A stretch of 64,000 nt of DNA from positions 383,430 to 447,429 of the forward strand of contig JAQBQP010000002.1 in NCBI GenBank assembly GCA_028286905.1, in the 5' to 3' direction. Position numbers and translations under genes: made by a program. How positions within the stretch are numbered: position 1 is the stretch's first letter; every line of letters begins with the position of its first letter. Under the pieces are notes generated by a model, which saw only the letters and a program-made list of their open reading frames with translations, was not told the DNA's origin and searched no databases. Origin of the DNA: Candidatus Doudnabacteria bacterium (GTDB lineage Bacteria; Patescibacteriota; Doudnabacteria; UBA920; VMFF01). Positions 27,914-50,352 of the stretch are shown here, in pieces.

Positions 27914-27988
27914 TGCCCGGTAGCCAAGTGGTAAGGCAGGGGCCTTTGAAGCCTCCATTCGCAGGTTCGATCCCTGCCCGGGCAGCCA
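27914..27988 (+). tRNA. tRNA-Gln (anticodon UUG)
   Basis: Cloverleaf TGCCCGG/CCGGGCA acceptor, anticodon arm GGGGC-CTTTGAA-GCCTC, T-arm GCAGG-TTCGATC-CCTGC, discriminator G, encoded CCA. Confidence 0.85.
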
Positions 27989-28021
27989 GACCAAACACGT
28001 TTCCCCGCTGACCTAGCGGGG
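27983..28021 (+). repeat. att-like direct repeat, copy 1, overlapping the last 6 nt of tRNA-Gln
   Basis: CAGCCAGACCAAACACGTTTCCCCGCTGACCTAGCGGGG; matches 50272-50309 with one indel. Confidence 0.8.
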
Positions 28022-28066
28022 TGAGTAAAAACAGTTAATAATATTTTAATAATGGAAAGTTATAAT

Positions 28067-28099
28067 AAAATCGCTTCATAGGCGATTTTTTGCTAAGAT
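28067..28099 (+). promoter_or_regulatory. Conserved terminator-hairpin / extended -10 module (AAAATCGC-loop-GCGATTTTTTGCTAAGAT) upstream of the methyltransferase gene
   Basis: Same ATCGCC/GGCGAT-T-tract-TGnTA module as at 50320, 53328 and 61523. Confidence 0.5.
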
Positions 28100-28126
28100 A
28101 AAGGGGTATATTAAGACAAAAAATAA

Positions 28127-29173
28127 ATGTCTCAAAAAATAAAAGCAGTAGATTTTTTTTGTTCTGGCGGAGGTATGACTTGTGGCCTAACCCAAGCAGG
28201 AATCGACGTCATTGCAGGAATCGATAATGACGCTACATGCGAAGAAACCTATAGTAAAAATAACCCGAACTCAAAATTCATTTTAGCGGATGTTTTTACA
28301 TTAAAGGAAAAAGAATTAGCTAAAAGATTGGGTCTTAAGAAGAACGATAAAAATTTAGTTCTCATAGGGTGTAGCCCTTGCCAATATTGGTCTATTATCC
28401 AAACAAATAAAACAAAATCCCAAAAATCCAAAAACTTGTTAATGGAATTTAAAAGATTTGTTGACTATTTCAATCCAGGTTATGTCTTAGTCGAAAATGT
28501 TCCTGGAATACTAGCAAAAAAAGAACAAAGCGGTTTAGCTAACTTTATCAAAGATCTTGAATCTAAGGGATATAAAGTTCATTTCGAAATTGTAAACATG
28601 AATGATTACGCTGTCCCTCAATCTCGCAAACGTTTTTCTTTAATCGCCAATAGGGTTTCAAAAAAGGCAATTTTCCCAAAACCCACTAAAGACAAGCGTC
28701 CTACGGTCGCAGATTTTATTGGTCAAAATAATGGATTTAAAAAGGTTAAGGTGGGTTTCAAAGATACAACACCCTTTAACCATAGTGTGGCAGGATTAAC
28801 CAAAAAAAATCTTTTGCGTTTGAGAAAAACGGAGAAAAACGGAGGTTCATGGTTAAGCTGGTCTAATGACAAAGAACTAAAACGAAAACTTTACCGCGGT
28901 AACGGTTTTATAGATAACTATGGTAGAATGTCTTGGGAAAAACCAGCTCCAACTATTACAACAAAATTTTTCAGCATCTCAAATGGCAGATTTGCTCATC
29001 CTGAAGAAGACAGAGCTCTTTCGATACGTGAAGGAGCTACTCTGCAAACCTTTCCTAAAACATATAATTTCTATTCAACTAGCATGACAAGCATCGCGCG
29101 AATGATAGGCAACGCGGTGCCTCCTGAATTTGCAAAAAAACTCGGAAGAACAATAATCGAAAATCATGAATAA
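28127..29173 (+). CDS. DNA (cytosine-5)-methyltransferase
   Basis: 348 aa with m5C methyltransferase motif I FCSGGGMTCGL, motif IV GCSPCQYWS (catalytic PC) and motif VI ENVPGI. Confidence 0.93.
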   Translation: MSQKIKAVDFFCSGGGMTCGLTQAGIDVIAGIDNDATCEETYSKNNPNSKFILADVFTLKEKELAKRLGLKKNDKNLVLIGCSPCQYWSIIQTNKTKSQKSKNLLMEFKRFVDYFNPGYVLVENVPGILAKKEQSGLANFIKDLESKGYKVHFEIVNMNDYAVPQSRKRFSLIANRVSKKAIFPKPTKDKRPTVADFIGQNNGFKKVKVGFKDTTPFNHSVAGLTKKNLLRLRKTEKNGGSWLSWSNDKELKRKLYRGNGFIDNYGRMSWEKPAPTITTKFFSISNGRFAHPEEDRALSIREGATLQTFPKTYNFYSTSMTSIARMIGNAVPPEFAKKLGRTIIENHE

Positions 29174-30851
29174 AACAGAAAAACTTAAGATGACTTTTAC
29201 ACCCAATACCATTGAGCATTTGGGTGTACGGATGTACTCTACGCTACCTCCTGTTATAGCTGAGCTTATCGCTAATGCTCAGGATGCTGACGCTACTGGA
29301 GTTAAAATACACCTGAGCGATACTGCAGATAAAGAAATCGTCATCTCAGACGATGGTCACGGAATGTCGTTTGAAGATATAAATAGCAAATTTTTACGTA
29401 TTGGACGTAATCGCCGCAATGAAGAAGGTGGACAGACCTCACCAGGCGGTAGAAAAGTTATTGGTAAAAAAGGATTGGGTAAACTATCCTTTTTTGGTAT
29501 TGCTCATGAAATAGAGGTCCGCACCACACAAGATCACAAAAGGAACTCCTTTGTTATGCGATGGGAAGACATTCTTTCTGACGATGACCAAAGTAAACAA
29601 AAAGATTACTCTCCAGAGATTTTGGAAAAGGATGTAAAATCTTCCGATAAAGCTGGTACGACTATAATTTTAAGAAAAATAGAACGCGTTAGCGACTTTG
29701 ATGCGAATTCTCTTGCAGACAAGCTATCAAAGTTTTTTATTATAGACCCTGATTTTAATATTTACGTAAAACATAATAATGAGAAAACAATTTTAATAGA
29801 AAACGACCGTAAATATTCCAATCTTACCAAAGAAGTTGAATGGCAAGTACCTGCAGATATTGATTTAGAGTCAGATTACGAAAAACAATCAGAAATTAGA
29901 GGACACCTAATTGCTGCTGAAAAGCCAATTCCTCCTGCAACCAATATGAAAGGCATTACATTATTTTCACGCAAAAAACTAGTAAATAGTCCAGAATACT
30001 TCTCAGACAGTACTTCAAGCCATTTTTTTACGTACTTAACTGGTTGGCTTGAAGTAGATTTTATAGATGATCTTGGGGAAGATGTGATCGGCACCAACCG
30101 TCAATCTCTAAATTGGGAACATCCTGATATGGTGGCATTACGAGAATATTTACAAAAAATGTTACGTTGGCTAGAAACCGACTGGCGTAAAAAAAGAGCA
30201 AAAATAAAAGAAAAGAAATTTGATGAAGGAACAGGTTTAAAAATTGGTGAATGGAGGGAGCATATCCCAAAAAATATAAACGATAATTTGGATCCTATCA
30301 TAAACGCCTTAACACAAGATGCAGAGTTACCCGATAATGAAGCCATCGCGAGCTTGAAAGGTTTGCAAAATATAATTAAACCTTATCCTTATTTTCATTG
30401 GCAAAACCTACATCCCACTCTTCATAACTTAGTCTTTCCTTTTTACAAAAGTGAAGATTATTACAGAGCTGTCTCGGAAGGTGTAATCAAATATGTGAGA
30501 GAAATACAAAAAAAATCTACCAGCGGATTAAATGACTCCGCGTTAATTAAATTTGCCTTTGCCCCTGACCAGCCTCCACCTCCTGCCCCACAAGCTAATC
30601 CCGAATTATCTGTTACCAAAAAGTTTAAAAGACCTAACGGAACCAACTTCGAAAATGATACAATCTCAAACATTCGTAGGGGCCATGGTCTTCTTGCACA
30701 TGCCATGTGGTTAGCTTTTAGAAATCCTATCCACCATGAACTAACTTCTGATTTAAAAGATTCTGGGCTTTATACAGAACAAGATTGTTTAGATGCTTTA
30801 GGACTTCTTTCTCATCTTTTTAGACGTTTGGAAAACTCTGAGCTGACCTAA
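29166..30851 (+). CDS. GHKL (HATPase_c / MORC-like) ATPase with a C-terminal HEPN-like domain
   Basis: 561 aa. Bergerat-fold motifs are ELIANAQDA (N box), DDGHGM (G1) and GKKGLGKLS (G2). The C-terminal roughly 120 aa is all-alpha and carries RGHGLLAH and FRNPIHHE (Rx4-6H) motifs. The ATG at 29166 overlaps the methyltransferase stop (ATGAATAA), so the two genes are translationally coupled. Confidence 0.8.
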   Translation: MNKTEKLKMTFTPNTIEHLGVRMYSTLPPVIAELIANAQDADATGVKIHLSDTADKEIVISDDGHGMSFEDINSKFLRIGRNRRNEEGGQTSPGGRKVIGKKGLGKLSFFGIAHEIEVRTTQDHKRNSFVMRWEDILSDDDQSKQKDYSPEILEKDVKSSDKAGTTIILRKIERVSDFDANSLADKLSKFFIIDPDFNIYVKHNNEKTILIENDRKYSNLTKEVEWQVPADIDLESDYEKQSEIRGHLIAAEKPIPPATNMKGITLFSRKKLVNSPEYFSDSTSSHFFTYLTGWLEVDFIDDLGEDVIGTNRQSLNWEHPDMVALREYLQKMLRWLETDWRKKRAKIKEKKFDEGTGLKIGEWREHIPKNINDNLDPIINALTQDAELPDNEAIASLKGLQNIIKPYPYFHWQNLHPTLHNLVFPFYKSEDYYRAVSEGVIKYVREIQKKSTSGLNDSALIKFAFAPDQPPPPAPQANPELSVTKKFKRPNGTNFENDTISNIRRGHGLLAHAMWLAFRNPIHHELTSDLKDSGLYTEQDCLDALGLLSHLFRRLENSELT

Positions 30852-30862
30852 CCTATTCAAAG

Positions 30863-31513
30863 CTAGCGGGCAAACTCCCCCGCCCAAGTTCCCAAGTAAG
30901 GGCCATGACAGGTCACGCTAAAGTTTAAAGGTTTTTGAAACAAAGGATTAAAAGCAGTGCCGTCGGATTTATAGAAATTTCTTTGGGTGACCACCATTGT
31001 GTCATGCGTATCTTTTGGATTGGATTGCAACTCACTTGGGATATCAATGAAATCTAGATGTGACTTGTAGGAATCATTCAATGTTAAGTCGCAGTTAGCC
31101 CAGTCAAGAGAGTTTAAATTCTTTATAGTAAATACTGGCTGGTCATCAAATTCTGAACCCATAGCTTCCATTGCGGTAGTTCGAAGAACCTTTAGGTTCA
31201 TTATTTCTTGAGGCTGGGTCGTAGCTGAGTTTTCGCTAGGAGTATTTAGGAAATGGTCTTTGAGCATTGCATAAGTCATGAATGCAAAAGTTAGAATGAA
31301 AAATCCTACCAAGATTTTATTTTTTGTTTTACTTAAATCTATTGATTGCACCGGCTTATTCTCAGGCATTTTTTTGAGTCTTTCTGCCAGCGTAGAAACA
31401 CAAAGCCCCACGCTAGCTGGGCCGTGAAGCCCCATACCAGTTTCCCGGTATGGCTCGTAAAAGCGCTGAACGTGGGGTTCAGTATCTTTTACGAGTCTTT
31501 GTGCCATGCTCAT
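30863..31513 (-). CDS. Hypothetical single-pass membrane protein
   Basis: 216 aa: cytoplasmic N-terminus, one transmembrane helix (ILVGFFILTFAFMTYAML) and an extracytoplasmic domain; convergent with the GHKL gene. Confidence 0.5.
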   Translation of the reverse strand: MSMAQRLVKDTEPHVQRFYEPYRETGMGLHGPASVGLCVSTLAERLKKMPENKPVQSIDLSKTKNKILVGFFILTFAFMTYAMLKDHFLNTPSENSATTQPQEIMNLKVLRTTAMEAMGSEFDDQPVFTIKNLNSLDWANCDLTLNDSYKSHLDFIDIPSELQSNPKDTHDTMVVTQRNFYKSDGTAFNPLFQKPLNFSVTCHGPYLGTWAGEFAR

Positions 31514-31559
31514 ATTCCTATAAGTTTAGGCTTATTATTAAGTTGTTAATGTAATTATA

Positions 31560-32882
31560 CTACAAATTTTCCGCTATTGTAACACTGTTGTTTTCTACCT
31601 TTATTCGACCTTTTAACAAAGTTAGCAAGCTGCGCTTTTCATCATTGCTCCCATCCCTCAATATGTATTTTGCATAAGCTCTGGTATCTATACTATCTTG
31701 ATCTAAAGGTTTGTCAGTTAACTTTAGAATGTCCTTTCTAAATTTATTGTATCTAGCAATCTCTTCTTGAAATTTATGCCGTACTCCAAGTTCGTTAATA
31801 TCTATAATGTCTATTATCTTTAACAGACCGATAATAAGATTATCTTCTCTTATATATTTGTTATGGCATATAGCGCGTTTTCCTCTGGTGCAGCCATAGT
31901 AGATATAATGCGAAACGTTACCGTCTTTTAATTGTTTAAATTTTTCTTCCGCGGTAATTCCAGATCCACAAAGACCACAGATCATAAGTCTAGTAAATGC
32001 GAACTCTCTAGTTTGCCTTGGGGCATTATCTCTCTTCATCTGTTCTTGGGTAGCAAAAAACAGATCTTTAGATATTAAAGGTTCCTGTCTTCCAGAATAA
32101 AAATTACCACTCCCCTTTGGATACTCTAAAGTTCCGTAGTAGAAATGGTTTTGTAATATATTGTATACGTTTGAAAGAGATAAGTGCTTTCCATGGATTG
32201 ACCTAAAGTTTAATTCATCTTTTAACCAATGGTGAATTCTTCTGCCGCTTAATCCTTGGTTTGCATACCTTTCAAATATTTGTTTTATAACTCCTGCCCT
32301 ATCTGGGTCGATATTAACCTCGCATTTGTGATCTATTCTTTTTTCGTTTAAGTATCCGGTTGGCGCAGTTGCTGGCCACAATCCCATTTCAACTCTTGCT
32401 CTCATCCCTCTTTTTACATTTACACTCTTATTATCGTTTTCAAGCTTTGCTTGAGAACCCAGAATCATTAACAAAAATTTTTCATTCGGGTTATTTGTAA
32501 ACCTTTGGCTAAAAGTTCTAATTTCAACTAGCTTCTTTTGATCTAACAAATCTACAAGTGCTCCAAGGTCACCAGCATTTCTACTTAGTCTATCTGGGTG
32601 CCAGACAAGAATGCCACTGAACTTACCGCTTCTAATGTTTGTGAGAAGCTGGTTATATACCGGTCTTTGACCACAATCTTTGGCTGAGTGGGATTCCCTA
32701 TAAACCTCTGCCACAGTAAGGCCATTTCGGTCCGCTACGGCAAGCATTTCCTTTACCTGGGATTCTATTGAAAGTGCTTGCTTCTCCTCAGCTTCGCTCG
32801 ATTTTCGCGCATACAGGCAATACTGGATGGTATCAGCGACCAGTTCGGTTTGTGGGCTAATATATAAAGTCTTTTCTTGCAT
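31560..32882 (-). CDS. Large serine recombinase (resolvase/invertase catalytic domain, recombinase domain and zinc ribbon)
   Basis: N-terminal YARKSSEAEE catalytic-serine motif, recombinase domain, and zinc ribbon CGLCGS...YYGCTRGKRAICHN. The likely start is the Met at 32882 (MQEKTLYIS...) inside ORF 31560-33023. Confidence 0.88.
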   Translation of the reverse strand: MQEKTLYISPQTELVADTIQYCLYARKSSEAEEKQALSIESQVKEMLAVADRNGLTVAEVYRESHSAKDCGQRPVYNQLLTNIRSGKFSGILVWHPDRLSRNAGDLGALVDLLDQKKLVEIRTFSQRFTNNPNEKFLLMILGSQAKLENDNKSVNVKRGMRARVEMGLWPATAPTGYLNEKRIDHKCEVNIDPDRAGVIKQIFERYANQGLSGRRIHHWLKDELNFRSIHGKHLSLSNVYNILQNHFYYGTLEYPKGSGNFYSGRQEPLISKDLFFATQEQMKRDNAPRQTREFAFTRLMICGLCGSGITAEEKFKQLKDGNVSHYIYYGCTRGKRAICHNKYIREDNLIIGLLKIIDIIDINELGVRHKFQEEIARYNKFRKDILKLTDKPLDQDSIDTRAYAKYILRDGSNDEKRSLLTLLKGRIKVENNSVTIAENL

Positions 32883-32904: not shown

Positions 32905-32944
32905 GGATATATAGCAAGCGGGGCTATAGTGGATAAATATAGAC
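32905..32944 (+). repeat. About 31 bp conserved site, copy 1 (TATATAGCAAGCGGGGCTATAGTGGATAAATAT), between the divergent recombinase and HEPN-like genes
   Basis: 29 of 31 positions identical to 41335-41370 on the same strand. Confidence 0.7.
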
Positions 32945-32986: not shown

Positions 32987-33754
32987 ATGAAGATAAATCC
33001 ATATTTTCGGACAACGCTAGCAAAACCTTTCCAGGGTAAATTTTTACACGAAGCAGGTGCTGAGGTAATTCTAAATATTCCTATTAATTCAAAAACAATT
33101 GGAAACTTTATCATAATGCTTCCAGATCCAGTTTCTCTAAACTTAAATAATGCCCAAGCTTTTATAGATAAGTGGGTAAAACTAAAAGAACGCATCAATA
33201 AATCAAAAAACTTCACCGTTTACAGCAGCGCTCTTTCTGAGGATGACATATCGGGTAAAAGCCAAGAACAAATAAAACACTTGGATCCTAATGCAAATTT
33301 TTATAGAACCTTAGATGAGGAAAAAGTGTTTGAGTGTATACAAAGTAGTATAGGCGTGGTTATCTCCTTAATCACTGCTATGGAAGCCTTCGTTAATGTT
33401 GTCATTCCTCATGATTACATTTTGCAGAGGACTAATAAACGAAGTGAAAAAGAAAATCTAAATAAAGATTCTATTGTAAAAAAACTATCTATTTCGGAAA
33501 AGATAATTTTAATTGCAGATATAAAAGGCAAGGCGGACTTGAAAGAACAAGTATTCTGGTCAACTTTTCACGAAGTAAAAAAATTGAGAAATGATATTAT
33601 TCATTTCAAAAAAACTGACGCTAACATAAATAATATGTGGGCTCCTATAATTATCGGTTTCCTAGATTCCGATTTACAGAAATTTTTTGATCACTTCGTA
33701 ATTATGATTGATTATCTTCACTCTGGTTATTTAGATACTAAAACTAATATCTAG
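32987..33754 (+). CDS. HEPN-like (Abi-type) hypothetical protein
   Basis: 255 aa, predicted all-alpha, with an Rx4H motif KKLRNDIIHFK near the C-terminus; divergent from the recombinase. The start may instead be the internal Met at about 33114. Confidence 0.5.
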   Translation: MKINPYFRTTLAKPFQGKFLHEAGAEVILNIPINSKTIGNFIIMLPDPVSLNLNNAQAFIDKWVKLKERINKSKNFTVYSSALSEDDISGKSQEQIKHLDPNANFYRTLDEEKVFECIQSSIGVVISLITAMEAFVNVVIPHDYILQRTNKRSEKENLNKDSIVKKLSISEKIILIADIKGKADLKEQVFWSTFHEVKKLRNDIIHFKKTDANINNMWAPIIIGFLDSDLQKFFDHFVIMIDYLHSGYLDTKTNI

Positions 33755-33759: not shown

Positions 33760-34230
33760 CTAATCTAAATAACCCCCGTGCTTATCTCTAAAATCTTTGG
33801 GAATTAATTTATCAGCGCTTCTTAAAGACCTGTAGTGATAGACTACACCCATCACTATAACCACTGTGGTTATAGTGATGGTGAGCATCAAACTTATCTT
33901 CAATGGATAAACTACAGCCAAAGCTTGTCCTATAAAACCTAAGATTAAAAAAGTAAAACCAAAGTAACTACTTAGACGTGTTTCATGTTCGGAAGCTTTT
34001 GCGTACGGGTTTTCATCAAAAAAAGTATCTGCTTTTAACTTACTTACTCTTGAAGAAGTAATAATGATGCTTTTTACCAACCAAAAAGATCCATACACGT
34101 CTAATATTAAGCCTAGGAATGATATAGAATATTGTTTAGATATAATTTGAACTAAAGTACTCATAGCGAATCGTCGATTATACGGGCCGTTCTTCTTCAC
34201 TGAGATCTTATATTTTTTTCTGATGTTCAA
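33760..34230 (-). CDS. Hypothetical membrane protein (3-4 transmembrane helices)
   Basis: 156 aa hydrophobic ORF with no recognisable motif. Confidence 0.45.
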   Translation of the reverse strand: MNIRKKYKISVKKNGPYNRRFAMSTLVQIISKQYSISFLGLILDVYGSFWLVKSIIITSSRVSKLKADTFFDENPYAKASEHETRLSSYFGFTFLILGFIGQALAVVYPLKISLMLTITITTVVIVMGVVYHYRSLRSADKLIPKDFRDKHGGYLD

Positions 34231-34479: not shown

Positions 34480-34794
34480 TTAATCAAGAGTATTTTTCTT
34501 CACAAATACACCTTCTATCCCATCGTACAACATGTGTAATTTGCCGTCATTAGTTAGTTTTATTTTGGTTCGCTCTTCTCTCGGAGCCGAAGGTTGATTG
34601 GTTACCAAATAATCTCCTTCTATTTGATAAGTTAGAAAAATATACTGATTTTTATCACCTTCTGACGTGGAGTAGGTCAATTTGCCATCTGCTTGAAAGT
34701 TCATTGTCACATCACCAAATTTATTATAGGCTTTCTTATTATCGCCATCCGGTGCTAGTACCCATATACCAATAATTTGTGTTTGTGTATCCAT
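34480..34794 (-). CDS. Small protein immediately downstream of RHS-1; candidate cognate immunity protein
   Basis: 104 aa; its ATG lies 1 nt after the RHS-1 stop; predicted soluble beta-rich protein. Confidence 0.55.
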   Translation of the reverse strand: MDTQTQIIGIWVLAPDGDNKKAYNKFGDVTMNFQADGKLTYSTSEGDKNQYIFLTYQIEGDYLVTNQPSAPREERTKIKLTNDGKLHMLYDGIEGVFVKKNTLD

Positions 34795-34795
34795 A

Positions 34796-41334: not shown

Positions 41335-41370
41335 ATCTATATAGCAAGTGGGTCTATAGTGGATAACTAT
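41335..41370 (+). repeat. About 31 bp conserved site, copy 2 (TATATAGCAAGTGGGTCTATAGTGGATAACTAT)
   Basis: Direct-orientation near-identical copy of 32905-32944, upstream of RHS-1 and of ORF 41400. Confidence 0.7.
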
Positions 41371-41399: not shown

Positions 41400-41741
41400 T
41401 TGGAAATCGGCAAAGAAGAAAAGGATGAAAATTTATTTTCACCCGACCCAACAGATGCCAATCTTGCATTGGCTTGGCTGAGGATTGAAGTTGAAAAAAG
41501 AATCCGTAAAATTGCTGAAATAAATGATGTAAAAGATACAAACCGAGGTGTTTCGCTTTTATTACACCAATTAGTTTTAAAAGGGTTTTTTGATGAAAGT
41601 ACGACTAGTGGCTTGGCTAATCTATTAAGTATTTTAAACGGTGTTCAGGCCATAACAAAAGGCAATCAATTGATAGGTATTCTGAATGCTAAAATACGTT
41701 TTGAAAGCAAGAAAAAGATTGCTGCAATAATTTCTGCTTGA
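41400..41741 (+). CDS. Hypothetical small ORF (TTG start, no in-frame ATG)
   Basis: 113 aa ORF between the two RHS genes on the opposite strand. It depends on a TTG start, and its upstream region carries copy 2 of the 31 bp site. Confidence 0.2.
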   Translation: MEIGKEEKDENLFSPDPTDANLALAWLRIEVEKRIRKIAEINDVKDTNRGVSLLLHQLVLKGFFDESTTSGLANLLSILNGVQAITKGNQLIGILNAKIRFESKKKIAAIISA

Positions 41742-41761: not shown

Positions 41762-42202
41762 TTAGATACCAGAAACAGTTGGGTATTCGTAAAGACTTTT
41801 AGCTATTCCATCATAATACTTTTTAAAGTATTTATTATCCCGTTCGATGTCCCATTCTTTTAAGTACGTGAAAAAACCAAATTCTCCTTGCTCACAAAGT
41901 TCCTTTACAGCACTCAACATGTTTTCCAGTGTTACCTTTTCCAAAACAATCATTCCAGGAGCAGCCTCAAATGGGTGATGGATATCGGCGTTGCGTTTTA
42001 AGGATAGCTCTAAATTATTAATATCATAAAATGTAACCTGGTAACACTTACCGTTTTGAAGCTCTACCAAAACAAACTGAATCCAACCGTTCTCTTTTAC
42101 CTCAGCGGCCATTCTATCATCAAAACCGCCATAAAATTTTAATTTTGGCCAAACGTCATTTTGATTTAAGGTCAGAGGATGGGGTAAATTTAAGTCCTTC
42201 AT
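41762..42202 (-). CDS. Small protein downstream of RHS-2; candidate cognate immunity protein
   Basis: 146 aa whose start overlaps the 3' end of RHS-2 by about 47 nt, the overlap typical of toxin-immunity pairs. Confidence 0.55.
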   Translation of the reverse strand: MKDLNLPHPLTLNQNDVWPKLKFYGGFDDRMAAEVKENGWIQFVLVELQNGKCYQVTFYDINNLELSLKRNADIHHPFEAAPGMIVLEKVTLENMLSAVKELCEQGEFGFFTYLKEWDIERDNKYFKKYYDGIAKSLYEYPTVSGI

Positions 42203-45200
42203 ATGGTTTGGTTTGTATCTTATTTAATGATTCTTGAAACTGTTTTGGGGTAAGGTTTACTCCCTTTTTTGGAACTATTGAGCCATGCCCATTACTACCC
42301 TGTAGAATTTCCAGTTGATCAGGAATACTAATTATTTGATTTGCTCCTCCATATTTTACAACATTTGCATTAGCTGGATCAATATTTACTGAAGGGCCTT
42401 GTGTTCTTCCTACATATCCTGTCTTTGGATCAACTGTAAAGTCTGCGCCCGCCCTACCAGTGAGATCAAAACTTCCACCTCCGCGGTAAAAGCCACCTTC
42501 AACAGATACATTACCTTCAGGAATTGGAATGCCATCAACTGAAATCATATCACCCATAAATATAAACTGCGGTTGATATTTCTTTGTCTGCGCATATTGT
42601 TGAGGCTCATAAACAGGATCGGCTTGCAATATTTTGGGTTGTAATAATCCGATAACTATAAGTGTAATAAGATCGTCAATACCGAAAAATTTTCCTGTTG
42701 GGTCTGTATATTTTAGAGGATTATTTCGAGCATAGCTATAACTATTTAGAGCTTGAGGGTCTGTTAGAAACACTAGCCCATCTTTATCCGTGTCTTTCTT
42801 GATGAGGCTTGGAGAGCCTACTTCCAGAAAGGCAGGATCTTCACTTTGAAATCTCCCGGTTGCTTGATCATAATATCTTGCATCCATATAAGTAAGCCCA
42901 GTGTCGGCATCAAATTCATGTCCGGCAAACTTACGTTGTTCACTAAATGTGCCTGCTTTTTCGTCTAATCTGGATGTACCAAATGGGTAATAATCCAACA
43001 ACTCGTCTTGCGCTCCAACAGCATTAAGCACAATATTACTACCCGTTAAATTATCAGTAACGGTATTGCGAGCGACTGCTGTAGTCCCAGTTCCTGAAAT
43101 TGTCGCCACATCCATACCGTTTGCAAAAATGTGTTTAGTTATATTTGTGCCGTCCGTATTATATAACTTGGTTGGGTAAGCTACAACAGTTGAACCATTT
43201 ACGTATTTTGCTCTTTCTCCATTTGCATCATAGGCATAAGCTATGGTTGTAGATCCAGCAACAGTTTGAGTGAGACGATTATTATAGTCCCAAGTATTTG
43301 TATAGGATGTTCCTTTAGTTAAGACATTTCCATTTCTGTCGTAAGTGAGTCCGACAGAACCTATTGCAGTTACTGCATGAGGATTCGCATACAAGGTTCC
43401 TGTATTACCTGAGTACGCATATGTTCCGGTGATATCAGATTTGGTTAGTAAATTACCGATCGCATCATAAGTGTAAGTTTCTGAATGGTTGTTACTGTTT
43501 ACTGCACTTGTGGTAGTCATCGAGGCCAAGCGATACAAGTCGTCATAGCCATAAGCTACATTCTTCTTTGTGTTAGTCGTAGAATTATCTACAATTGCAG
43601 TTATATTTCCAACGTTATCATAGGTATAAGAAACATCTTGGAATTTAGGATTAAAGTTTACTGTTGCGGTTCTGGTTGTAGAACCTGAACTATTACTTGC
43701 AGTTAACGTATAAGTAGTTGTCGTTGTTGGGCTTACAGATGTGGAGCCATGCCCAAACATGCCCCCAACGCCATTATCAATACTAAAGGTTGTCGGCGTA
43801 CCTCCTGAGACCGTCCAAGTTAACGTCGAACTATGCCCTGAACTAATATTTGCGGGCGTTGCTTGAAAAGTATTAATTACTGGTGCGATACTTGTGTTTC
43901 CTATAATCCAAGAGTAAATAGTGCCCCACCAATTGGTGGCAAAGAGCGTTGCAGTATTGGGATCAAATAATAATGCGTAGACTGAATTTCCGAAACTGGA
44001 ACCTGGAAGACCGGTACTCATTTCTGACCAATTTGTACCGCCGTCAGTTGAAGTTTGCACCCTAGCACCATTGAATACCGAATATAAAGTTGTGTGGCTT
44101 TGTGGACTTATTATCATTCCATCATGGGCAACAAAACCATTTAGATCGGTAATTTTGGTCCAAGTGCTTCCCGAGTTAGTAGTTTTATAAAGATGATTTT
44201 GATTTGACCAGGAATCCACTGATGCCACATATATTGTACTAGTACTGGTAGGGTCTATTACTAATGCTGTCATCTTTGTGGTGGAGTTCAAAGTGTAGGT
44301 AAACACACGAGACCAAGAAGTTCCAGAGTTCGTCGTCTTGATCACTCCAGTATTTACTGAAGCATATAATGTACTTGGAGTCGTGGGGTCTATAACTAAG
44401 TCGTAGGGCAAGTCATTTGTGACACCGCTTGGATCATACACTTTAGACCAAGAAGTTCCAGAGTTCGTCGTCTTATAAATTCCAGTAGTATCGTTAACAA
44501 CGTAAACCGTTCCGGATGTTGCAGGATCAACTACCAAGTCAATATAATTTTGACAACTACTAATTGTCAGTCCACTATTTATTTCAGACCATGTTGTTCC
44601 CGCATCTGTAGATTTATAGACACTGCCATGCGCCCAGCATGAAGAGTCCCAATCTGTAGCGGCATATACTGTATTGTGATTCAGTGGATCCACAGCGATT
44701 GAATTTACTAACCAACTTGAGGTGGAAGTAATTTGTGTCCACGTTGTGCCGCTGTCCGTCGACTTATAAATTCCATTCCATGTGCCAGAATATTCTATTG
44801 TTGAATTAGTTGGATCCATCACCAAGGCTTTTGCAACTTGAGGAGAACCCGAAACCCCAGACCAGCTTGTAGAGATAGTATTGACTGCAGGTGTCGTTGG
44901 TGGAGTACCTGCTGATGAAGTAGGTGTTGTCAATTTATTACTTAACCGGTATAGATGGGCGGCATCATAAGTATTTGCTGTTATGATACCGTTCGCGTAA
45001 TCTGTTTCAGAAATTTGTCCAGTTGGAGAATAATCAAAGTTTGTGACAACGTCCGAATAACTTGAATCCGTAGATTCTTTTCTTTGAACTTGATTTAATA
45101 GACCCGCAGAATTATAAATATATTTTACCTGTGAACTATCAGGGTTGGTAATAATTAACTGGTTACCTTGTCTGTCATATGTGTAATCAGTTTCGTAGCT

Positions 45201-48200
45201 ATTTCCACCAATTACTTTTATCTCAGATTTTAATCCACCTAAGGGATTATACGTATTCGTTTGAGTCACTGCACTTGTTGTCGAAGAATAGAGATGACCT
45301 TTGCCGTCTGTCCCCGTGTCATACACGTAGGTGTTTTCTGTTCCGGTTGCTCCGGTGTAATCTTCAGTGAGTACTCTATTTATATTATCAAAGGTGTAAT
45401 TTGTAGTCTGACTTAAAGCGTCTACCTTCTGAGTTAAATTACCTGCGTCATCATAAACGTAAGCCCAGGTGCCATAAGTAGCATCGGCAGAAGCGTGAAG
45501 ATCTTGAGCAGTTAGATTTCTACCTAAACCATCGTAGGTAAAATTACGAACATTTCCAGAAGCATCGGTAATCTTTAATAGATCACCTAAGAAATCATAA
45601 ACATAATACGTACTATAGGTGCTACCGCTATTATGCTCATCGACCTGAATTAGGTTTCCATAAGCATTTTTATAGAAATCTTTGACTTTAGAATTTGCAT
45701 CATTTACAGTCAGTTTCCAGTCGTTATATGTGTTTGTGGTGGTACCTGCAGCATTTACAGAAGTTGTGATTCTATTCATTGGATCGTATGAGTAGACAGT
45801 ATAAAGTGCTGTGGTAATGGTTGGAGAAGTTTTAGTTGTTCCTATTGAGAAATATGGCAGAGATTCTTTATACAAGTTTCCCCTGCTGTCATATACATAA
45901 TCTTTTACCGAGAAATTACTGCCCTCTGCTTCTGTTCTTTCCTGTAATTTTCTACCTAGACCATCAAAATAGGTATAAACATCAACTGTTGTTGAAGAAT
46001 CTAGATAATTTGAAATCAAAGTCTTCACAGCACCAGAAGTATCTGTATAGATAGTAGTGTTTTTTGTAACCAACGTCGAAGGAGTAATTAAGTCCGGTTG
46101 ATCTTGTTCAACCAAACGATCTAGCCCATCATAAACGTTTTTAAACACTCTAGTATTAGGATCGGTTGTTTGTAAAACCTGTCCTGATGAATAATCATAC
46201 GTATTCGTTGTGACTTGAGAAAGTGGATTTGTTACCGTTGTTGGATACAGATGATAGGTATCATAAGAATACGATGTTGTTTTTCCTCTTGGGTCTGTAT
46301 CTACTGTAACGATTCCATAGGTACCATCATAAGTTTTTTGAGTATTAACAAATGTCGTACTCACTTTCCACATTTCGTGTTTAGTCTGATTTCCTTTTGT
46401 AACTGCTCCAAAAGATTGGGTATCATAATAATACTTATCCTCTTTTACTTTTGTAGCACTATGATCTGTTACAGAAATGTCATCGGGTAAACCAATAACA
46501 TTAGCTCCGTCTGTGGCATAGGTGTACGCGGTTGTAAAATCGTCAGTTCCAATATCAACGTAAGAACCATCGTCACTGCCAGTAACTTCACCTAGTTCAG
46601 TTTTCTGAGACACGTTTCCTGTTGAATTGTTATATAGGTAAGTTCTTGCAACATCTCGGTGTGTACTATCTCCGTCGTATGTTGAAGTGACAGTGCGGGT
46701 CACCCTTACAAATTTCTTTCCGCCTGTTAGATTGTAGCTATCCCATCTATTAATAACCTTTGAGAACAAACTGCCACTAGAATTAGCGACGGTCATGCGA
46801 TACATTTTTCCAATTTTCCAGTACTCATCGCTATACTCACCATGTGTGGAGTCACTTCCATTGCCTTGGTGAAAATATGAAGTCATTACATTTCCTGACG
46901 GATCTGTTTTAGTGATTACTCCAAAGCCTGCAAATTTACGGGTAGTAAAATCTCCACTGTCGAAATAAAAAGACCCTAAAGAATTCGAATATGTGTCGGT
47001 ACCGGTTGTTCCTAAACCATCGTTAGAAGTAACTTGATAAACTGTTTGGATTACATAAGGAAGTTTTGGGTTCAATCCGTTATAGCCAGACAGTGCTGAA
47101 GACTTGTAAGTAAACGTACTAGACCCACCAAAAGGAAAAGTTGTACTAGATAGTAGGTCTGTTGCTGCACTGTTGTTTATATAAATAGAAGTATACCCAT
47201 CCGTAATATCTGCCATCCCATCCCCATTCAAGTCTAAAATATCCGCGCTTGAACCATACCCGTTTGTAAAAGAGAATGTTCCAGGAGTATTCCAGCTAGT
47301 AGTATTCGAGGTCCAACCGTTACCAGTATTCAAATATGTTGTTCTATAAATTGCTCCGTACCAATTTATAGATTGGATCAAATCTGGTAAACCATCCCCG
47401 TTGACGTCCGCAAATCTAACCCCCAGATCTGAAGGATAGTACCCACTCAGATAAGAAGTTGTTAGTGCGGGTGTATAATCGGTGCTTGAAGTCCAGGTTC
47501 CTTTACCATCACCTAGATATGCGCTTGTATTAAACGTTGTACCTGTCCAAGCCAATCTTATAATGTCTTCCAAGCCATCACCGTTTAAATCTAAGAATGT
47601 AGCGTTATCGCCGCTTATAACAGGGAAAGTCCAGCTAGAACCCACGTCGCTGGTCCATCCAGAACCTGTGTTTAAATAAACATGTGCTGCGATTGAACCT
47701 CCCGAAATTGTATTTGATTGAAATATATCTGGAAGACCGTCTCCGTTTAAATCCACTATTCTCGTGCCAAAATCTGACCATAAATACGTAAAATTAATTG
47801 GAGAAGTCCAAGCCGTAGTTACTGTCCACCCACTGCCATTATTTATGTATGTGGCAGCTGTAATCGTACCAGAACTGTCTTTGTTCGAATATATTAAATC
47901 AGCCAAGCCATCGCCGTTTACATCAATAGCGTGAACATTAAAATCAATGTTACTTCCGGCATTAAATGATTTAAACGGGGTAGGAGCGTTGTATGCGGAA
48001 GACGCCGTCCAAGTGCCACTACTATTATTTAAATATGTAGCACGATAGTCAGTTCCGTTTGAAGCGGTGAAAGAAGTGATAATATCAGGCAAACCATCAC
48101 CATTTATGTCTGCAAATAAAGATCTTCCATCGAACGAGGTGTCTGATGGAAAAGACCAACTAGAATTCTGTGTCCAACCAGACGAAGTTGTGGACGTGTA

Positions 48201-49424
48201 CGCATTTGTTGTTGCTGGTAATGTAACGGTTGAGGTGGTAATTTCATCTGTTCCCGCTTCTGTTATAGATGTCAGTATAGAACGTGTACCGTTATCCCCT
48301 GTTGAGTACGCAAAGGTGTACTTACGAGTTATAGTACCATTTGTTTTTATGTCTATTTCGTAGATTCGATAATTCGTAGTTGTGAGAAAACCGCCTTGAT
48401 AAGATTTGGTTACATCACCCCTGGTTTGACGAAGGAAATCTATTTCAAAAATACCGGTCGTTACACCATTCCCCGTATAAATTATTGTATTTGGATAAAT
48501 TTGTCCACTGTCTTTGTAATATGTGTAGGTAATGTAGTTGCTGTTTGTGTCTCTTACTTCATCTAGCATCCACTTAACCACTTTAGAAGAATCCCCCGGA
48601 TTATCCTGTCTTGAACCAGACGCTGTACCAAATTTATAAATAGTTCCTTTTTTATCTGTCACTGTCCATGCAGTTCCATCAAAATTGTATTTAAGGAAAT
48701 CTCCATTTTCTACAGTAGACGCGTAAGTAGTTCCAGAAACAAAAGATAAATCTCCAGAAAGACTGGAGTTAAAATAATTATCAGTAAATAGAGTGCTTAC
48801 ACCTTTTTTATTTACTCTGGAAATATAAGGAACAGTGGTTGTCCATCCATACCCAACGGGACTATCACCAGAAACAGATTGGCTATTGTAAGCAAGTTTT
48901 AAATCCGGTTGCATTCCGTTTCGGCCAGGTGGAATTGTGATCGGATAACTTGAAACCAATGCTCCTGTTGTTTGATCAGGTTGTGGAATTATTTGCTTAG
49001 TTACGGTAGGCTGTGGCAATCCGGTTGCTACATCCTGTTGGATTAGTGCACTTGATTGTGGCGCAACTTTGACCTTTGAAGACTTAGCCGTTGCTGACAA
49101 AGGGTCAGAGCTCAAAGAATCAGTGGTAGGGTCAAGACCAGCAACATCAGGACCTGCTACTGTTGGATCAGTCACAGGCGCGGGAACGGCAGCATTAGGA
49201 GTGTTTACTACAGGATCGGTAAGGGGCGCAGTTGGAGTATCCACCACTACAGGGGAGCTAAGAGCATTACTAGGAGTATCTGATACGGGCGCAGAAATAA
49301 CAGTATTAGAAGTATCTGCGAAAACAGGAGCTAAAGGAGCTATAACAAATAAAAAAGCTAACAGAAAAACTGTTAACCGAGTTACTAGACGCCTCTTAAA
49401 TAGAGTTGCCATTATTTTGTTCAA
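42156..49424 (-). CDS. Giant RHS/YD-repeat polymorphic toxin-like secreted protein (RHS-2) with an embedded BNR/Asp-box beta-propeller
   Basis: 2422 aa with a signal peptide near-identical to RHS-1 (LLAFLFV..PLAPVFAD), FG-GAP-like repeats, YD repeats, six SxDxGxTW Asp-box repeats and a Thr-rich Ig-like segment. The RHS core ends at DPTGKF, followed by a roughly 190 aa C-terminal tip unrelated to that of RHS-1. Confidence 0.9.
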   Translation of the reverse strand: MNKIMATLFKRRLVTRLTVFLLAFLFVIAPLAPVFADTSNTVISAPVSDTPSNALSSPVVVDTPTAPLTDPVVNTPNAAVPAPVTDPTVAGPDVAGLDPTTDSLSSDPLSATAKSSKVKVAPQSSALIQQDVATGLPQPTVTKQIIPQPDQTTGALVSSYPITIPPGRNGMQPDLKLAYNSQSVSGDSPVGYGWTTTVPYISRVNKKGVSTLFTDNYFNSSLSGDLSFVSGTTYASTVENGDFLKYNFDGTAWTVTDKKGTIYKFGTASGSRQDNPGDSSKVVKWMLDEVRDTNSNYITYTYYKDSGQIYPNTIIYTGNGVTTGIFEIDFLRQTRGDVTKSYQGGFLTTTNYRIYEIDIKTNGTITRKYTFAYSTGDNGTRSILTSITEAGTDEITTSTVTLPATTNAYTSTTSSGWTQNSSWSFPSDTSFDGRSLFADINGDGLPDIITSFTASNGTDYRATYLNNSSGTWTASSAYNAPTPFKSFNAGSNIDFNVHAIDVNGDGLADLIYSNKDSSGTITAATYINNGSGWTVTTAWTSPINFTYLWSDFGTRIVDLNGDGLPDIFQSNTISGGSIAAHVYLNTGSGWTSDVGSSWTFPVISGDNATFLDLNGDGLEDIIRLAWTGTTFNTSAYLGDGKGTWTSSTDYTPALTTSYLSGYYPSDLGVRFADVNGDGLPDLIQSINWYGAIYRTTYLNTGNGWTSNTTSWNTPGTFSFTNGYGSSADILDLNGDGMADITDGYTSIYINNSAATDLLSSTTFPFGGSSTFTYKSSALSGYNGLNPKLPYVIQTVYQVTSNDGLGTTGTDTYSNSLGSFYFDSGDFTTRKFAGFGVITKTDPSGNVMTSYFHQGNGSDSTHGEYSDEYWKIGKMYRMTVANSSGSLFSKVINRWDSYNLTGGKKFVRVTRTVTSTYDGDSTHRDVARTYLYNNSTGNVSQKTELGEVTGSDDGSYVDIGTDDFTTAYTYATDGANVIGLPDDISVTDHSATKVKEDKYYYDTQSFGAVTKGNQTKHEMWKVSTTFVNTQKTYDGTYGIVTVDTDPRGKTTSYSYDTYHLYPTTVTNPLSQVTTNTYDYSSGQVLQTTDPNTRVFKNVYDGLDRLVEQDQPDLITPSTLVTKNTTIYTDTSGAVKTLISNYLDSSTTVDVYTYFDGLGRKLQERTEAEGSNFSVKDYVYDSRGNLYKESLPYFSIGTTKTSPTITTALYTVYSYDPMNRITTSVNAAGTTTNTYNDWKLTVNDANSKVKDFYKNAYGNLIQVDEHNSGSTYSTYYVYDFLGDLLKITDASGNVRNFTYDGLGRNLTAQDLHASADATYGTWAYVYDDAGNLTQKVDALSQTTNYTFDNINRVLTEDYTGATGTENTYVYDTGTDGKGHLYSSTTSAVTQTNTYNPLGGLKSEIKVIGGNSYETDYTYDRQGNQLIITNPDSSQVKYIYNSAGLLNQVQRKESTDSSYSDVVTNFDYSPTGQISETDYANGIITANTYDAAHLYRLSNKLTTPTSSAGTPPTTPAVNTISTSWSGVSGSPQVAKALVMDPTNSTIEYSGTWNGIYKSTDSGTTWTQITSTSSWLVNSIAVDPLNHNTVYAATDWDSSCWAHGSVYKSTDAGTTWSEINSGLTISSCQNYIDLVVDPATSGTVYVVNDTTGIYKTTNSGTSWSKVYDPSGVTNDLPYDLVIDPTTPSTLYASVNTGVIKTTNSGTSWSRVFTYTLNSTTKMTALVIDPTSTSTIYVASVDSWSNQNHLYKTTNSGSTWTKITDLNGFVAHDGMIISPQSHTTLYSVFNGARVQTSTDGGTNWSEMSTGLPGSSFGNSVYALLFDPNTATLFATNWWGTIYSWIIGNTSIAPVINTFQATPANISSGHSSTLTWTVSGGTPTTFSIDNGVGGMFGHGSTSVSPTTTTTYTLTASNSSGSTTRTATVNFNPKFQDVSYTYDNVGNITAIVDNSTTNTKKNVAYGYDDLYRLASMTTTSAVNSNNHSETYTYDAIGNLLTKSDITGTYAYSGNTGTLYANPHAVTAIGSVGLTYDRNGNVLTKGTSYTNTWDYNNRLTQTVAGSTTIAYAYDANGERAKYVNGSTVVAYPTKLYNTDGTNITKHIFANGMDVATISGTGTTAVARNTVTDNLTGSNIVLNAVGAQDELLDYYPFGTSRLDEKAGTFSEQRKFAGHEFDADTGLTYMDARYYDQATGRFQSEDPAFLEVGSPSLIKKDTDKDGLVFLTDPQALNSYSYARNNPLKYTDPTGKFFGIDDLITLIVIGLLQPKILQADPVYEPQQYAQTKKYQPQFIFMGDMISVDGIPIPEGNVSVEGGFYRGGGSFDLTGRAGADFTVDPKTGYVGRTQGPSVNIDPANANVVKYGGANQIISIPDQLEILQGSNGHGSIVPKKGVNLTPKQFQESLNKIQTKPYEGLKFTPSSDLKSK

Positions 49425-49492: not shown

Positions 49493-50020
49493 TTATAAAG
49501 GATTGTCTTTATTATATTGCTCATATTCAGCTTCGCTCATATCATTCTCCAGATTAGAAAAGAATCGAGAATCTGTGAGCAGATCCATTAGCAAACTATT
49601 GTATTTATTTTGCAACCATTCTGGAAGTTTGTCGATTAAGGTACGCATATCATCTTCACTAAAATAACTCTTCTGATTTTCATTTTTAAGTATCTTTGGA
49701 TCAAAGCCTTCAATATAGGCCATCCAGAATCTCTGACTTTTTGCATTCCCTTTTATAGCGGCGTTGTACATCGCCTGAAGCATAGCTGGCAGCCTATCCC
49801 TACCCCACTGTTTTAAAATTGCATCAACCTGAGGCTTAAAGTCCGCCCGATTCTTCCAGTGTGTTAGAGTATTCTGGTTTATGTTATAATGCTCCGCAAA
49901 TTCGCCTTGATCGCTTAGGTGAAGCCTTGCTCTTTCAAAAGGAGGAAGCGCTGACCAGCGAATGAACTCCCGGTAAACATCCACTTTATAAACCCCCTTC
50001 TTTTCTACATTTGTCTGCAT
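49493..50020 (-). CDS. HTH DNA-binding protein, phage small-terminase-like
   Basis: The likely start is the Met at 50020 (MQTNVEKKG...) inside ORF 49493-50224. It has an HTH-like segment EFAEHYNINQNTLTHWKN and a ...AIKGNAKSQRFWMAYIEGF motif reminiscent of TerS. Palindromic operators lie upstream. Confidence 0.5.
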   Translation of the reverse strand: MQTNVEKKGVYKVDVYREFIRWSALPPFERARLHLSDQGEFAEHYNINQNTLTHWKNRADFKPQVDAILKQWGRDRLPAMLQAMYNAAIKGNAKSQRFWMAYIEGFDPKILKNENQKSYFSEDDMRTLIDKLPEWLQNKYNSLLMDLLTDSRFFSNLENDMSEAEYEQYNKDNPL

Positions 50021-50113
50021 TTTGATTTCTGCTGATTGAGTCGATAATGTCTTTATTATGGGCCAAATGAGCAAAAAAGTTAAATCTTTTAGATGCAACT
50101 TGCAATAGGGATT

Positions 50114-50128
50114 GTGATTGGCAATCAC
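50114..50128. promoter_or_regulatory. Perfect 15 bp palindrome GTGATTGGCAATCAC (candidate operator) with additional TTCAAT/ATTGAA half-sites nearby
   Basis: Located in the 5' region of the HTH gene. The annotated 243 aa ORF probably over-extends through this regulatory region. Confidence 0.5.
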
Positions 50129-50271
50129 TGTTGCTTTCGCTTTCAATCCGCTTTGAATCACTATTGAAAATCCGCATAGAAAGCGACCTATCCGGGTCAT
50201 TTCCCTATTTGGAAATATCCCCAAATACCCCTTATAATCCGTCTATATTCCTGGGACTGGACCGGCCCCTC

Positions 50272-50309
50272 CAGCCAGACCAAACACGTTCCCCGCTGAC
50301 CTAGCGGGG
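50272..50309 (+). repeat. att-like direct repeat, copy 2
   Basis: CAGCCAGACCAAACACGTTCCCCGCTGACCTAGCGGGG, followed directly by the ATCGCC hairpin module. Confidence 0.8.
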
Positions 50310-50319
50310 TTAAAAAAAT

Positions 50320-50352
50320 AAAATCGCCGAAGAGGCGATTTTTTGTTATGCT
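50320..50352 (+). promoter_or_regulatory. Terminator hairpin / extended -10 module (AAAATCGCCGAAGAGGCGATTTTTTGTTATGCT)
   Basis: Conserved module also at 28067, 53328, 61523, and weaker at 51703, 52414 and 63878. Confidence 0.55.

Follow-up and report, generated by a model that had tools for sequence, protein, structure and literature searches.

Mobile elements are conventionally divided by the targets of their recombinases: tRNA genes are assigned to tyrosine integrases, and protein-coding or other sites to serine integrases. The characterized serine integrases that we know of target protein-coding genes or intergenic sites. Here we analyze a 22.3-kb island that lies directly 3' of an intact tRNA-Gln gene and carries a large serine recombinase (LSR). 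The island occupies positions 28022 to 50271, between the two copies of a direct repeat, in a 64,000-nucleotide stretch of DNA from Candidatus Doudnabacteria bacterium (assembly GCA_028286905.1, contig JAQBQP010000002.1, positions 383,430 to 447,429 of the forward strand); the whole stretch is referred to as the window, and positions are those of the window. The evidence makes it probable that the 22.3 kb is foreign DNA and that the LSR encoded on it carried out the insertion at the 3' end of tRNA-Gln. A large survey of LSRs dealt with protein-coding targets only and never mentioned tRNA (PMC10083194), and genomic islands of Patescibacteria have been reported with no stated mechanism and with integrases and tRNA unmentioned (PMC12455944). 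No report of a tRNA-targeting LSR clade, or of prophage integrases from the candidate phyla radiation (CPR), was found in the literature searched, the coverage of which was incomplete and is not proof of novelty.

By analogy, the nearest functional counterpart of the island would be the staphylococcal cassette chromosome (SCC) element SCCmec, which is moved by the Ccr LSRs. As in the window, insertion of SCC elements is LSR driven, occurs at the 3' end of a conserved gene, and leaves direct repeats longer than a dinucleotide. Like the relatives of the window element described below, SCC elements form tandem or composite arrays at one site and carry restriction-modification (R-M) and other accessory cargo. 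Among NCBIfam models, the window LSR matches CcrB best (5.5e-33). However, the window LSR is not a Ccr, because it scores 114 bits against a CcrB cut-off of 900 bits; its scores for CcrA and CcrC are 60 bits, with cut-offs of 700 and 900. Unlike SCC elements, the island targets a tRNA rather than rlmH, has one recombinase rather than a CcrAB pair, resides in a CPR host, and includes a LOOT RNA.

The phage serine integrases (SPbeta SprA/YokA, A118, TP901-1, Bxb1, and phiC31) have the same three-domain architecture as the window LSR, and the solved structures closest to it are those of SPbeta YokA/SprA, followed by TP901-1. The clade to which the window LSR belongs is further linked to phages in that many members are encoded directly after the terminase small- and large-subunit genes (TerS-TerL) in phage-like contigs, and the site predicted for the clade, about 50 bp with inverted distal motifs, resembles phage integrase sites. 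The clade differs in that its target is consistently a tRNA 3' end, and the window has a 38-nucleotide identity rather than a 2-bp core. Tyrosine-integrase islands and prophages at tRNA genes (P4-like) share with the window the tRNA 3' end, repeats that include the tRNA end, defense and toxin cargo, and serial accretion. Unlike them, the window island lacks a tyrosine recombinase, relies on another recombinase chemistry, and does not have its recombinase gene at the tRNA-proximal edge.

The target, tRNA-Gln(UUG) (27914 to 27988, plus strand; ARAGORN anticodon ttg; Rfam tRNA, 63.8 bits), is intact with its CCA encoded, and 74 of its 75 nucleotides are identical to those of tRNA-Gln in the closest syntenic relative (locus L252). 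The first island gene starts at 28127, shortly after the tRNA end at 27988. The proximal, attL-type repeat copy (27983 to 28021, plus strand; CAGCCAGACCAAACACGTTTCCCCGCTGACCTAGCGGGG) begins within the last 6 nucleotides of the tRNA, and the distal copy is at 50272 to 50309 (plus strand), where CAGCCA is followed by 32 nucleotides that are the same as in the proximal copy. Both follow the formula CAGCCAGACCAAACACGTT(T)CCCCGCTGACCTAGCGGGG, with one T fewer in the T-run of the distal copy as the sole difference. These coordinates and the one-T difference are as the original prediction had them. The repeat consists of CAGCCA, which is the end of the tRNA, a 13- or 14-nucleotide spacer, and a perfect 6-bp hairpin (CCCCGC-TGACCTA-GCGGGG). 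Identity between the copies stops abruptly on either side. The attachment sites were reconstructed from these junctions, with attB as 27940 to 27982 plus the core (CAGCCAGACC..GCGGGG) plus 50310 to 50409, and attP as 50225 to 50271 plus the core plus 28022 to 28063.

The first 19 nucleotides of the repeat and its 19-nucleotide hairpin half each occur exactly twice in the 64-kb window with up to 3 mismatches allowed, none of 100 shuffled controls reached two copies, and a blastn-short search of the window revealed no third, degenerate copy. The repeat is thus not a widespread intergenic element within the window. A 17-nucleotide match to the tRNA end at 62289 to 62305 lies inside an open reading frame (ORF) and was dismissed as chance. 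The distal copy is preceded by a G+C-rich arm with weak resemblance to a tRNA end. This stretch had been regarded as a degenerate tRNA 3' end, a description that did not hold up: its ungapped identity to the tRNA 3' end is 11 of 30 positions, which 7.7% of random 30-mers from the window equal or exceed and which is not significant alone.

The LSR gene (31560 to 32882, minus strand) encodes 440 amino acids from an ATG at 32882, with catalytic (PF00239, 9e-25), Recombinase (PF07508, 2e-13), and zinc ribbon (PF13408, 1e-6) domains and a match to the phrog_95 integrase family (7e-68). The protein is identical to a full-length 440-amino-acid database entry; the longer ORF that was listed from a TTG at 33023 is probably too long. 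The 3' end of the gene faces the 3' end of tRNA-Gln, with 3.57 kb of cargo between them. The original prediction considered a serine recombinase at a tRNA gene to be an oddity. The clade as a whole gives a different picture. It comprises at least 7,998 proteins at E < 1e-60, typically 55 to 72% identical and mostly from CPR metagenome-assembled genomes and metagenomes. Among 100 LSR loci (20 viral and 80 metagenomic), 58 had at least 1.5 kb of sequence downstream of the LSR gene, and 33 of these have a tRNA gene on the opposite strand within 5.5 kb downstream, its 3' end facing the LSR 3' end. The upstream sequences of the 100 loci, 506 kb in total, contained no tRNA genes. At a roughly estimated density of one tRNA per 20 to 25 kb, random placement predicts a downstream figure of about 12% for one strand and an upstream total of about 20 tRNAs. 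The tRNA is as close as 94 to 189 nucleotides to the LSR stop codon in nine loci. The arrangement in the window is that of the family, which resolves the oddity.

The linked tRNAs are Gln (15 loci), Ser (11), Trp (3), Asp (2), and Arg (2), and in a neighbor-joining tree the tRNA type tracks LSR subclades, with the window LSR placed beside those of the tRNA-Gln-linked loci L049 and L050. The slot between LSR and tRNA is filled with cargo in relatives as well, including Dcm methyltransferases, RHS proteins, and a homologue of a 255-amino-acid protein of the island. The LSR gene is preceded by a phage-like block of two methyltransferases, TerS, and TerL in about 30 loci and by type I R-M genes in others. 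These comparisons suggest that the window LSR is the likely integrase of the island and comes from a huge clade systematically tied to tRNA 3' ends. One locus, L052, had been considered as an attP with a tRNA fragment; this was rejected when Rfam showed a tRNA-Asp interrupted by a group I intron (5104 to 5304, minus strand; 54 bits). A separate hairpin motif of about 40 nucleotides (TATTCCG..GCATACCTGCTGAGnGCAGTATTCAGA), which has no Rfam match, occurred exclusively in LSR loci linked to tRNA-Gln, in the interval between tRNA and LSR gene (L032, position 7382; L059, 3663; L073, 15101; L097, 4178; L102, 9999; L107, 2633; L117, 7565; and L127, 12467).

A conserved motif, N8-10-TTTAGTATCG-N3-4-GACC, directly follows the tRNA in LSR loci, irrespective of which tRNA it is. 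In an alignment of 47 sequences that includes both window copies (CTGACCTAGCGG), GACC is conserved to at least 90%, and in the proximal repeat copy it is located at +22 to +25 from the tRNA end. The window sequence GACCTAGCGGGGT is also close to GACCGAGCGGGGT in the arm of another element, present in loci L254 and L255. The T-loop of the tRNA contributes GGTTC at -25 to -21 and the motif contributes GACC at +21 to +25, an inverted pair about 50 bp apart, which may represent an LSR-sized site centered on the tRNA 3' end. Three loci (L081, L098, and L120) have the same right arm and a left arm that is merely degenerate and tRNA-like; these look like attP-type sites. A scan of viral contigs for TTTAGTATCG-N3-4-GACC gave 120 hits, essentially all of them chance, and an LSR accompanied the motif only in the already known contig c154 (IMGVR_UViG_3300000970_000154; loci L251 and L029 merged).

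Contig c154 carries a tandem array of two LSR elements at tRNA-Ser. Its outer part carries a type ISP R-M system, LSR2, Shedu SduA, DUF305, and a 133-amino-acid ORF, followed by a junction. The inner part consists of a 257-amino-acid ORF, two methyltransferases (N6/N4), a TerS-like ORF homologous to the 243-amino-acid ORF at the distal end of the window island, TerL, a reverse transcriptase, further genes, LSR1, 4.6 kb of cargo, attL, and tRNA-Ser. The junction (GGGTACTTAACCCGAGTGGCCCGCAC plus TGGATACCGGTTATCGGTAGACCC plus a T-arm-like hairpin) takes the form of a degenerate tRNA-like arm, then CCGCAC, then TTATCGG..GACCC. It has only CCGCAC and the motif in common with attL. This fits a new P arm, a core, and an old P' arm, with the new element inserted between the tRNA and the older one. 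The distal repeat copy of the window has the same anatomy as the c154 junction.

Relatives indicate that the sequence next to this tRNA-Gln varies. In L252 the left-flank gene order (MraY, S11 peptidase, thioredoxin, PspC, YbaB, and bactofilin) is the same as in the window. At the same tRNA-Gln, however, L252 has a different island of 4.5 kb that consists of a 118-amino-acid ORF, DUF4145, a DpnII R-M system, and an LSR 66% identical to that of the window, followed by NDK. As the two islands at this tRNA are unlike, tRNA-Gln is, from the sequences compared, a variable insertion point in the lineage. On the right side, the gene at 50410 to 50943 (plus strand) encodes a membrane-anchored protein of 177 amino acids with no family match and was taken as a host gene. 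Homologues (50 to 63% identical) are found 0.1 to 1.5 kb downstream of tRNA-Gln in loci L003/L004, L005, L006, L012, L014, and L021. The possibility that this gene is cargo of LSR elements was rejected because no LSR locus has a homologue. Some of the short spacers between tRNA-Gln and this gene (L003, L012, and L008) have extra partial copies of the tRNA end, which look like scars of repeated events; a 285-amino-acid ORF between the L003 copies was considered as a homologue of the 243-amino-acid ORF and found not to be homologous. The comparison with relatives that had been proposed as a check for an empty site thus gave a partial answer. Distant relatives keep tRNA-Gln near the right-flank gene and L252 holds another island; a single-repeat empty allele of the same species was not among them. 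A search of a collection of genome contigs with a left-flank protein found no relatives, and the source genome was not in that collection.

Two side observations concern these neighborhoods. Genes of the 177-amino-acid family recur as the nearest downstream neighbor of a tRNA (Gln, Ser, Glu, or Cys), in the same orientation, across CPR lineages (L008/L016, L011, L013, L028, and the window), and R-M or other defense genes often adjoin them. Just upstream of the intact tRNA-Gln in L252 are a truncated 5' fragment of tRNA-Gln (7003 to 7057) and a GIY-YIG gene (6736 to 6987, minus strand).

The element in loci L254 and L255 points to recent mobility in the LSR family. Positions 823 to 11368 of L254 and 1 to 10545 of L255 are the same 10.5-kb element (99.97% identical), joined to different tRNA-Gln 5' parts. 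It encodes a 435-amino-acid ORF, an LSR, a helix-turn-helix protein, a 1,591-amino-acid helicase, WYL, and DUF2779.

Tetranucleotide usage also sets the island apart. All 18 of the 5-kb segments within the island are at a distance of 0.22 to 0.375 from the flank reference, compared with no more than 0.19 in all 24 flank segments. A lack of k-mer discontinuity, which had been named as a finding that would count against insertion, is thus not what was observed, although GC content has no step. Beyond the island, a 4.6-kb patch at 54068 to 58618 has a GC content of 0.48 to 0.54 within a genome of 0.39. It includes a 362-amino-acid ORF, a 664-amino-acid sigma-70 (r2/r4) protein extended at its C terminus by a long Ala/Pro-rich stretch, and a 287-amino-acid ORF on the opposite strand, and is probably foreign DNA from a donor of higher GC content.

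These results are consistent with the following mechanism. The elements of the clade, which center on CPR and encode LSRs of about 440 amino acids, would insert with the LSR 3' end toward the tRNA 3' end, leaving a slot of 0.1 to 7 kb between the two for defense and toxin cargo. The LSR subclade would set the choice of tRNA (Gln, Ser, Trp, Asp, or Arg). The LSR would recognize a site of about 50 bp centered near the tRNA 3' end, with the T-arm and acceptor of the tRNA (GGTTC at -25 to -21) as the left half-site and the conserved GACC (+21 to +25) as the right half-site, and strand exchange would take place within or near the last 6 nucleotides of the tRNA (CAGCCA). New elements would insert beside the tRNA and push older ones outward, and such tandem accretion would build islands.

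The long repeat fits this mechanism less simply. The attachment sequences of the family share about 6 nucleotides in c154 and probably AGCCA in L252, compared with 38 in the window. Thus, the description of the repeats as the classic signature of insertion at a tRNA 3' end stands in part: relatives and composition support site-specific insertion at tRNA-Gln, but 38 nucleotides of identity is not classic for an enzyme family with cores of about 6 nucleotides. Because related elements share only such a core plus motif-level similarity, the window identity has to be explained in another way. An earlier sibling element may already have left its tRNA-proximal arm next to the tRNA before insertion, and the arm would have been kept for the downstream hairpin of the tRNA that it contains. 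The distal copy would then be a junction of new P, core, and old P', as in c154. Capture of host sequence, gene conversion, or homologous (Campbell-type) insertion could also have produced the identity.

Several observations weigh against insertion of the whole 22.3 kb by the resident LSR. LSRs normally leave an identity of 2 bp (to about 12 bp), so that the 38 nucleotides are atypical by general standards as well as by those of the family. In 46 tRNA-linked loci, a search with exact 13-mers of the 10 kb on the upstream side of the LSR revealed no distal attachment copy. The tRNA of L254 has a mismatched acceptor stem and is not called by ARAGORN; such a chimeric tRNA suggests either that tRNA paralogues recombined or that strands were exchanged within the body of the tRNA. 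The latter is at odds with the 3'-end crossover to which the window, c154, and L252 point. The window has no step in GC content at the island, and the RHS repeats, as a type of gene, may account for part of the tetranucleotide shift. The sole other assembly of the organism, Logan contigs with exact matches to the flank proteins, breaks inside the 5' half of the tRNA and is silent on the attachment sites. Finally, the LSR gene is 4.9 kb from one end of the island and 17.4 kb from the other, and the distal 17 kb may lie outside the unit of the LSR.

The last point leads to the most substantial alternative, which is a composite island. The current LSR element would then be only the tRNA-proximal 5 kb or so (28022 to about 33000: the R-M genes, a 216-amino-acid ORF, the LOOT RNA, and the LSR), and the distal 17 kb or so (a HEPN-like ORF, two RHS loci, and the TerS-like ORF) would be a trapped remnant of one or more older elements without a recombinase, with the distal repeat as the outer edge of the pile. 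The distal 17 kb may be such an older layer because the LSR of L252 is at the far end of its small 4.5-kb element, next to the host-like NDK gene. The tandem accretion in c154, the lower tetranucleotide distance of 28 to 34 kb (0.22 to 0.26) than of the RHS part (0.27 to 0.375), and the recurrence at 41338 of a 33-nucleotide block found by the LSR start point in the same direction. Yet there is no internal copy of the attachment core or of the family motif between the two parts, and nothing but the copy at 50272 is identical to attL. The family does include large single elements in which the LSR is internal, because the LSR of c154 is 12.5 kb from the far end of its element, and the homologue of the 243-amino-acid ORF lies inside that element. 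We regard a composite island as unlikely, though worth keeping in view, and retain insertion of the whole 22.3 kb by the LSR as the preferred explanation.

The length of the repeat gives some weight to other enzymes or pathways. It exceeds every LSR core seen in the family and its identity ends abruptly on both sides, as would follow from homologous (Campbell-type) insertion of a circle carrying the 38-nucleotide segment or from later homogenization of attL and attR by gene conversion, in which case the LSR did not make the junction. This is improbable, given that 38 nucleotides is near the lower limit for RecA-dependent exchange and that the location, the LSR orientation, and the family motif are exactly as in LSR elements. 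A 38-nucleotide repeat over a tRNA 3' end is also typical of tyrosine integrases, and an island formed in that way could later have lost its integrase gene, leaving the LSR as a passenger or as part of a nested element. As had been predicted, the LSR is the only recombinase inside: searches of the scanned island ORFs against Pfam, PHROGs, and NCBIfam gave no tyrosine recombinase, and the unscanned gaps, at most 250 nucleotides each, could not accommodate such a gene. Moreover, the LSR clade is itself tRNA linked in the orientation seen in the window, and the repeat has the LSR-family motif at the family spacing, so that loss of a tyrosine integrase is very improbable. Least credible of all is that the repeat is a common intergenic element and the 22 kb ordinary chromosome. 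The hairpin module adjoining the repeats is indeed generic, and the scan for repeats covered 64 kb of at least 540 kb, but the repeat halves are found just twice in those 64 kb even with 3 mismatches, relatives place tRNA-Gln beside the right-flank gene, and tetranucleotide usage shifts inside the island.

The adjoining module (28064 to 28109, plus strand; AATCGC-loop-GCGATTTTTTG..TA..) was initially taken, with its counterpart after the distal copy, as a further sign of attachment sites. The module is real, and the two copies after the repeats, each an ATCGCC hairpin with a T-run, are 76% identical over 46 nucleotides. However, it is uninformative about attachment because it is a generic terminator- or promoter-like intergenic element with eight plus-strand copies in the window (28069, 50322, 51702, 52418, 53329, 59631, 61524, and 63880), which follow plus-strand genes. 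The consensus, AATCGCC-loop-GGCGATTTTTTG(T)TAT.CT, has a hairpin and T-run and then a -10-like TATnCT, and looks like a fused terminator-promoter cassette. Similar modules follow genes in other CPR contigs and loci (e.g., L032 and L107).

A noncoding RNA is a further component of the clade. A LOOT RNA (Rfam RF03000) is located directly 3' of the window LSR gene on the same strand (31419 to 31532, minus strand). It scores 75.7 bits, above the gathering score of 46.4, and matches the full length of the model (positions 1 to 121). LOOT was found by Weinberg et al. (2017), the main text of whose report gives no function or context for it (PMC5737381). The closest LSR relative (L249, 72% identical) has LOOT at 2164 to 2280 in the same layout 3' of its LSR. 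A model built from seven copies found LOOT in 28 of the 100 LSR loci (L029 to L128) and in none of about 1.03 Mb of controls (CPR genome loci without an LSR and arbitrary viral contigs). The RNAalifold consensus of this model has only 16 base pairs, and the model was used for detection alone. LOOT RNA is specifically associated with this LSR clade. Most copies either diverge from the LSR at a distance of 170 to 270 nucleotides upstream or precede the block of methyltransferase, TerS, TerL, and LSR. Small membrane-protein ORFs follow LOOT on its own strand. In the window, the 216-amino-acid ORF downstream (30863 to 31513, minus strand), which has a predicted transmembrane segment and no family match, probably starts further downstream than listed because the listed N terminus overlaps the LOOT RNA; its N-terminal similarity to L249 and L108 falls in the LOOT region.

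The remaining genes agree in profile searches with the cargo initially described, which was a methyltransferase-GHKL pair, HEPN-like genes, the serine recombinase, and two RHS toxin-immunity loci. Next to the tRNA is a C5 cytosine DNA methyltransferase, the M subunit of a type II R-M system (28127 to 29173, plus strand; Pfam DNA_methylase, 1.4e-58; PADLOC MTase_II, 1.7e-93; TIGR00675 dcm). The gene that overlaps it (29166 to 30851, plus strand) encodes a GHKL ATPase with a HEPN-like Hypoth_Ymh C terminus (Pfam HATPase_c_3 and Hypoth_Ymh; PADLOC REase_II, 5.4e-38). Its match to NF050001 (BbrUII/HgiDII) is 234 bits, under the 550-bit cut-off, and spans residues 8 to 382 only, with Hypoth_Ymh replacing the C terminus of NF050001. 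The protein thus appears to be related to the BbrUII/HgiDII family of restriction enzymes.

Beyond the LSR are a 255-amino-acid ORF that is weakly HEPN/DUF3644-like (32987 to 33754, plus strand), a homologue of which (48% identical) adjoins the LSR in L098, and a membrane-like 156-amino-acid ORF with no family match (33760 to 34230, minus strand). Two predicted RHS polymorphic toxins make up most of the distal part. RHS1 (34796 to 41245, minus strand; 2,149 amino acids) has a signal peptide, SpvB, FG-GAP, RHS repeats, DPTGRW, and a unique C-terminal tip of about 160 residues. RHS2 (42156 to 49424, minus strand; 2,422 amino acids) also has a signal peptide and carries another C-terminal tip after DPTGKF. 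The two are paralogues with 45 to 58% core identity and unrelated tips of about 160 residues; their RHS_repeat matches (2.9e-28 and 5.1e-19) are accompanied by SpvB and FG-GAP. Each is followed by a small ORF, as in predicted toxin-immunity loci. The ORFs directly after RHS1 (34480 to 34794, minus strand; 104 amino acids) and RHS2 (41762 to 42202, minus strand; 146 amino acids) are candidate immunity proteins by position. Between the RHS loci is a 113-amino-acid ORF without a family match (41400 to 41741, plus strand). This ORF and the 255-amino-acid ORF were considered as duplicated HEPN genes, which was rejected because they are not homologous. The 243-amino-acid ORF (49493 to 50224, minus strand) has a helix-turn-helix like that of terminase small subunits (phrog_2538, 5.5e-7) and probably starts at M69, at about 50020; its homologue in viral contig c154 is upstream of TerL and an LSR.

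The 33-nucleotide block near the LSR start (32908 to 32940, 26 nucleotides upstream of the gene) recurs at 41338 to 41370, 91% identical and 93 nucleotides upstream of the RHS1 start, with unrelated flanks. The first copy overlaps a region upstream of LSR genes that is conserved in the family (TTATCCAC...). The block is likely a promoter or operator, and a secondary recombination site is another possible role. In L252, the region just upstream of the LSR start (2262 to 2300) resembles the tRNA-proximal arm of the element itself, and in L254 two palindromes, GTCCAGA(T/A)TCTGGAC, are located just upstream of the LSR start (2484 to 2515). LSRs may autoregulate through att-like operators at these positions.

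The island itself is of an ordinary, familiar kind, and the novelty is in the recombinases, a family that is linked to tRNAs and has a conserved site and a LOOT RNA. We tentatively propose, with somewhat less than even confidence, that a CPR-wide clade of thousands of LSRs holds the niche of tyrosine integrases at tRNA 3' ends. In such a clade, T-arm/acceptor and mirrored GACC half-sites would define the target, subclades would specialize on particular tRNAs, LOOT would be a dedicated noncoding component, and repeated insertion would build islands, the window being one such pile with a distal junction of new P and old P'. If confirmed, the clade would break, at a large scale, the division between tyrosine integrases at tRNA genes and serine integrases elsewhere. 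The orphan LOOT RNA would gain a testable genomic context, and both studies of integrase specificity and the development of tools would benefit from a natural set of serine integrases whose highly conserved tRNA targets are related yet distinct. The clade would also account for the movement of genomic islands, R-M systems, and RHS toxins in CPR/Patescibacteria.

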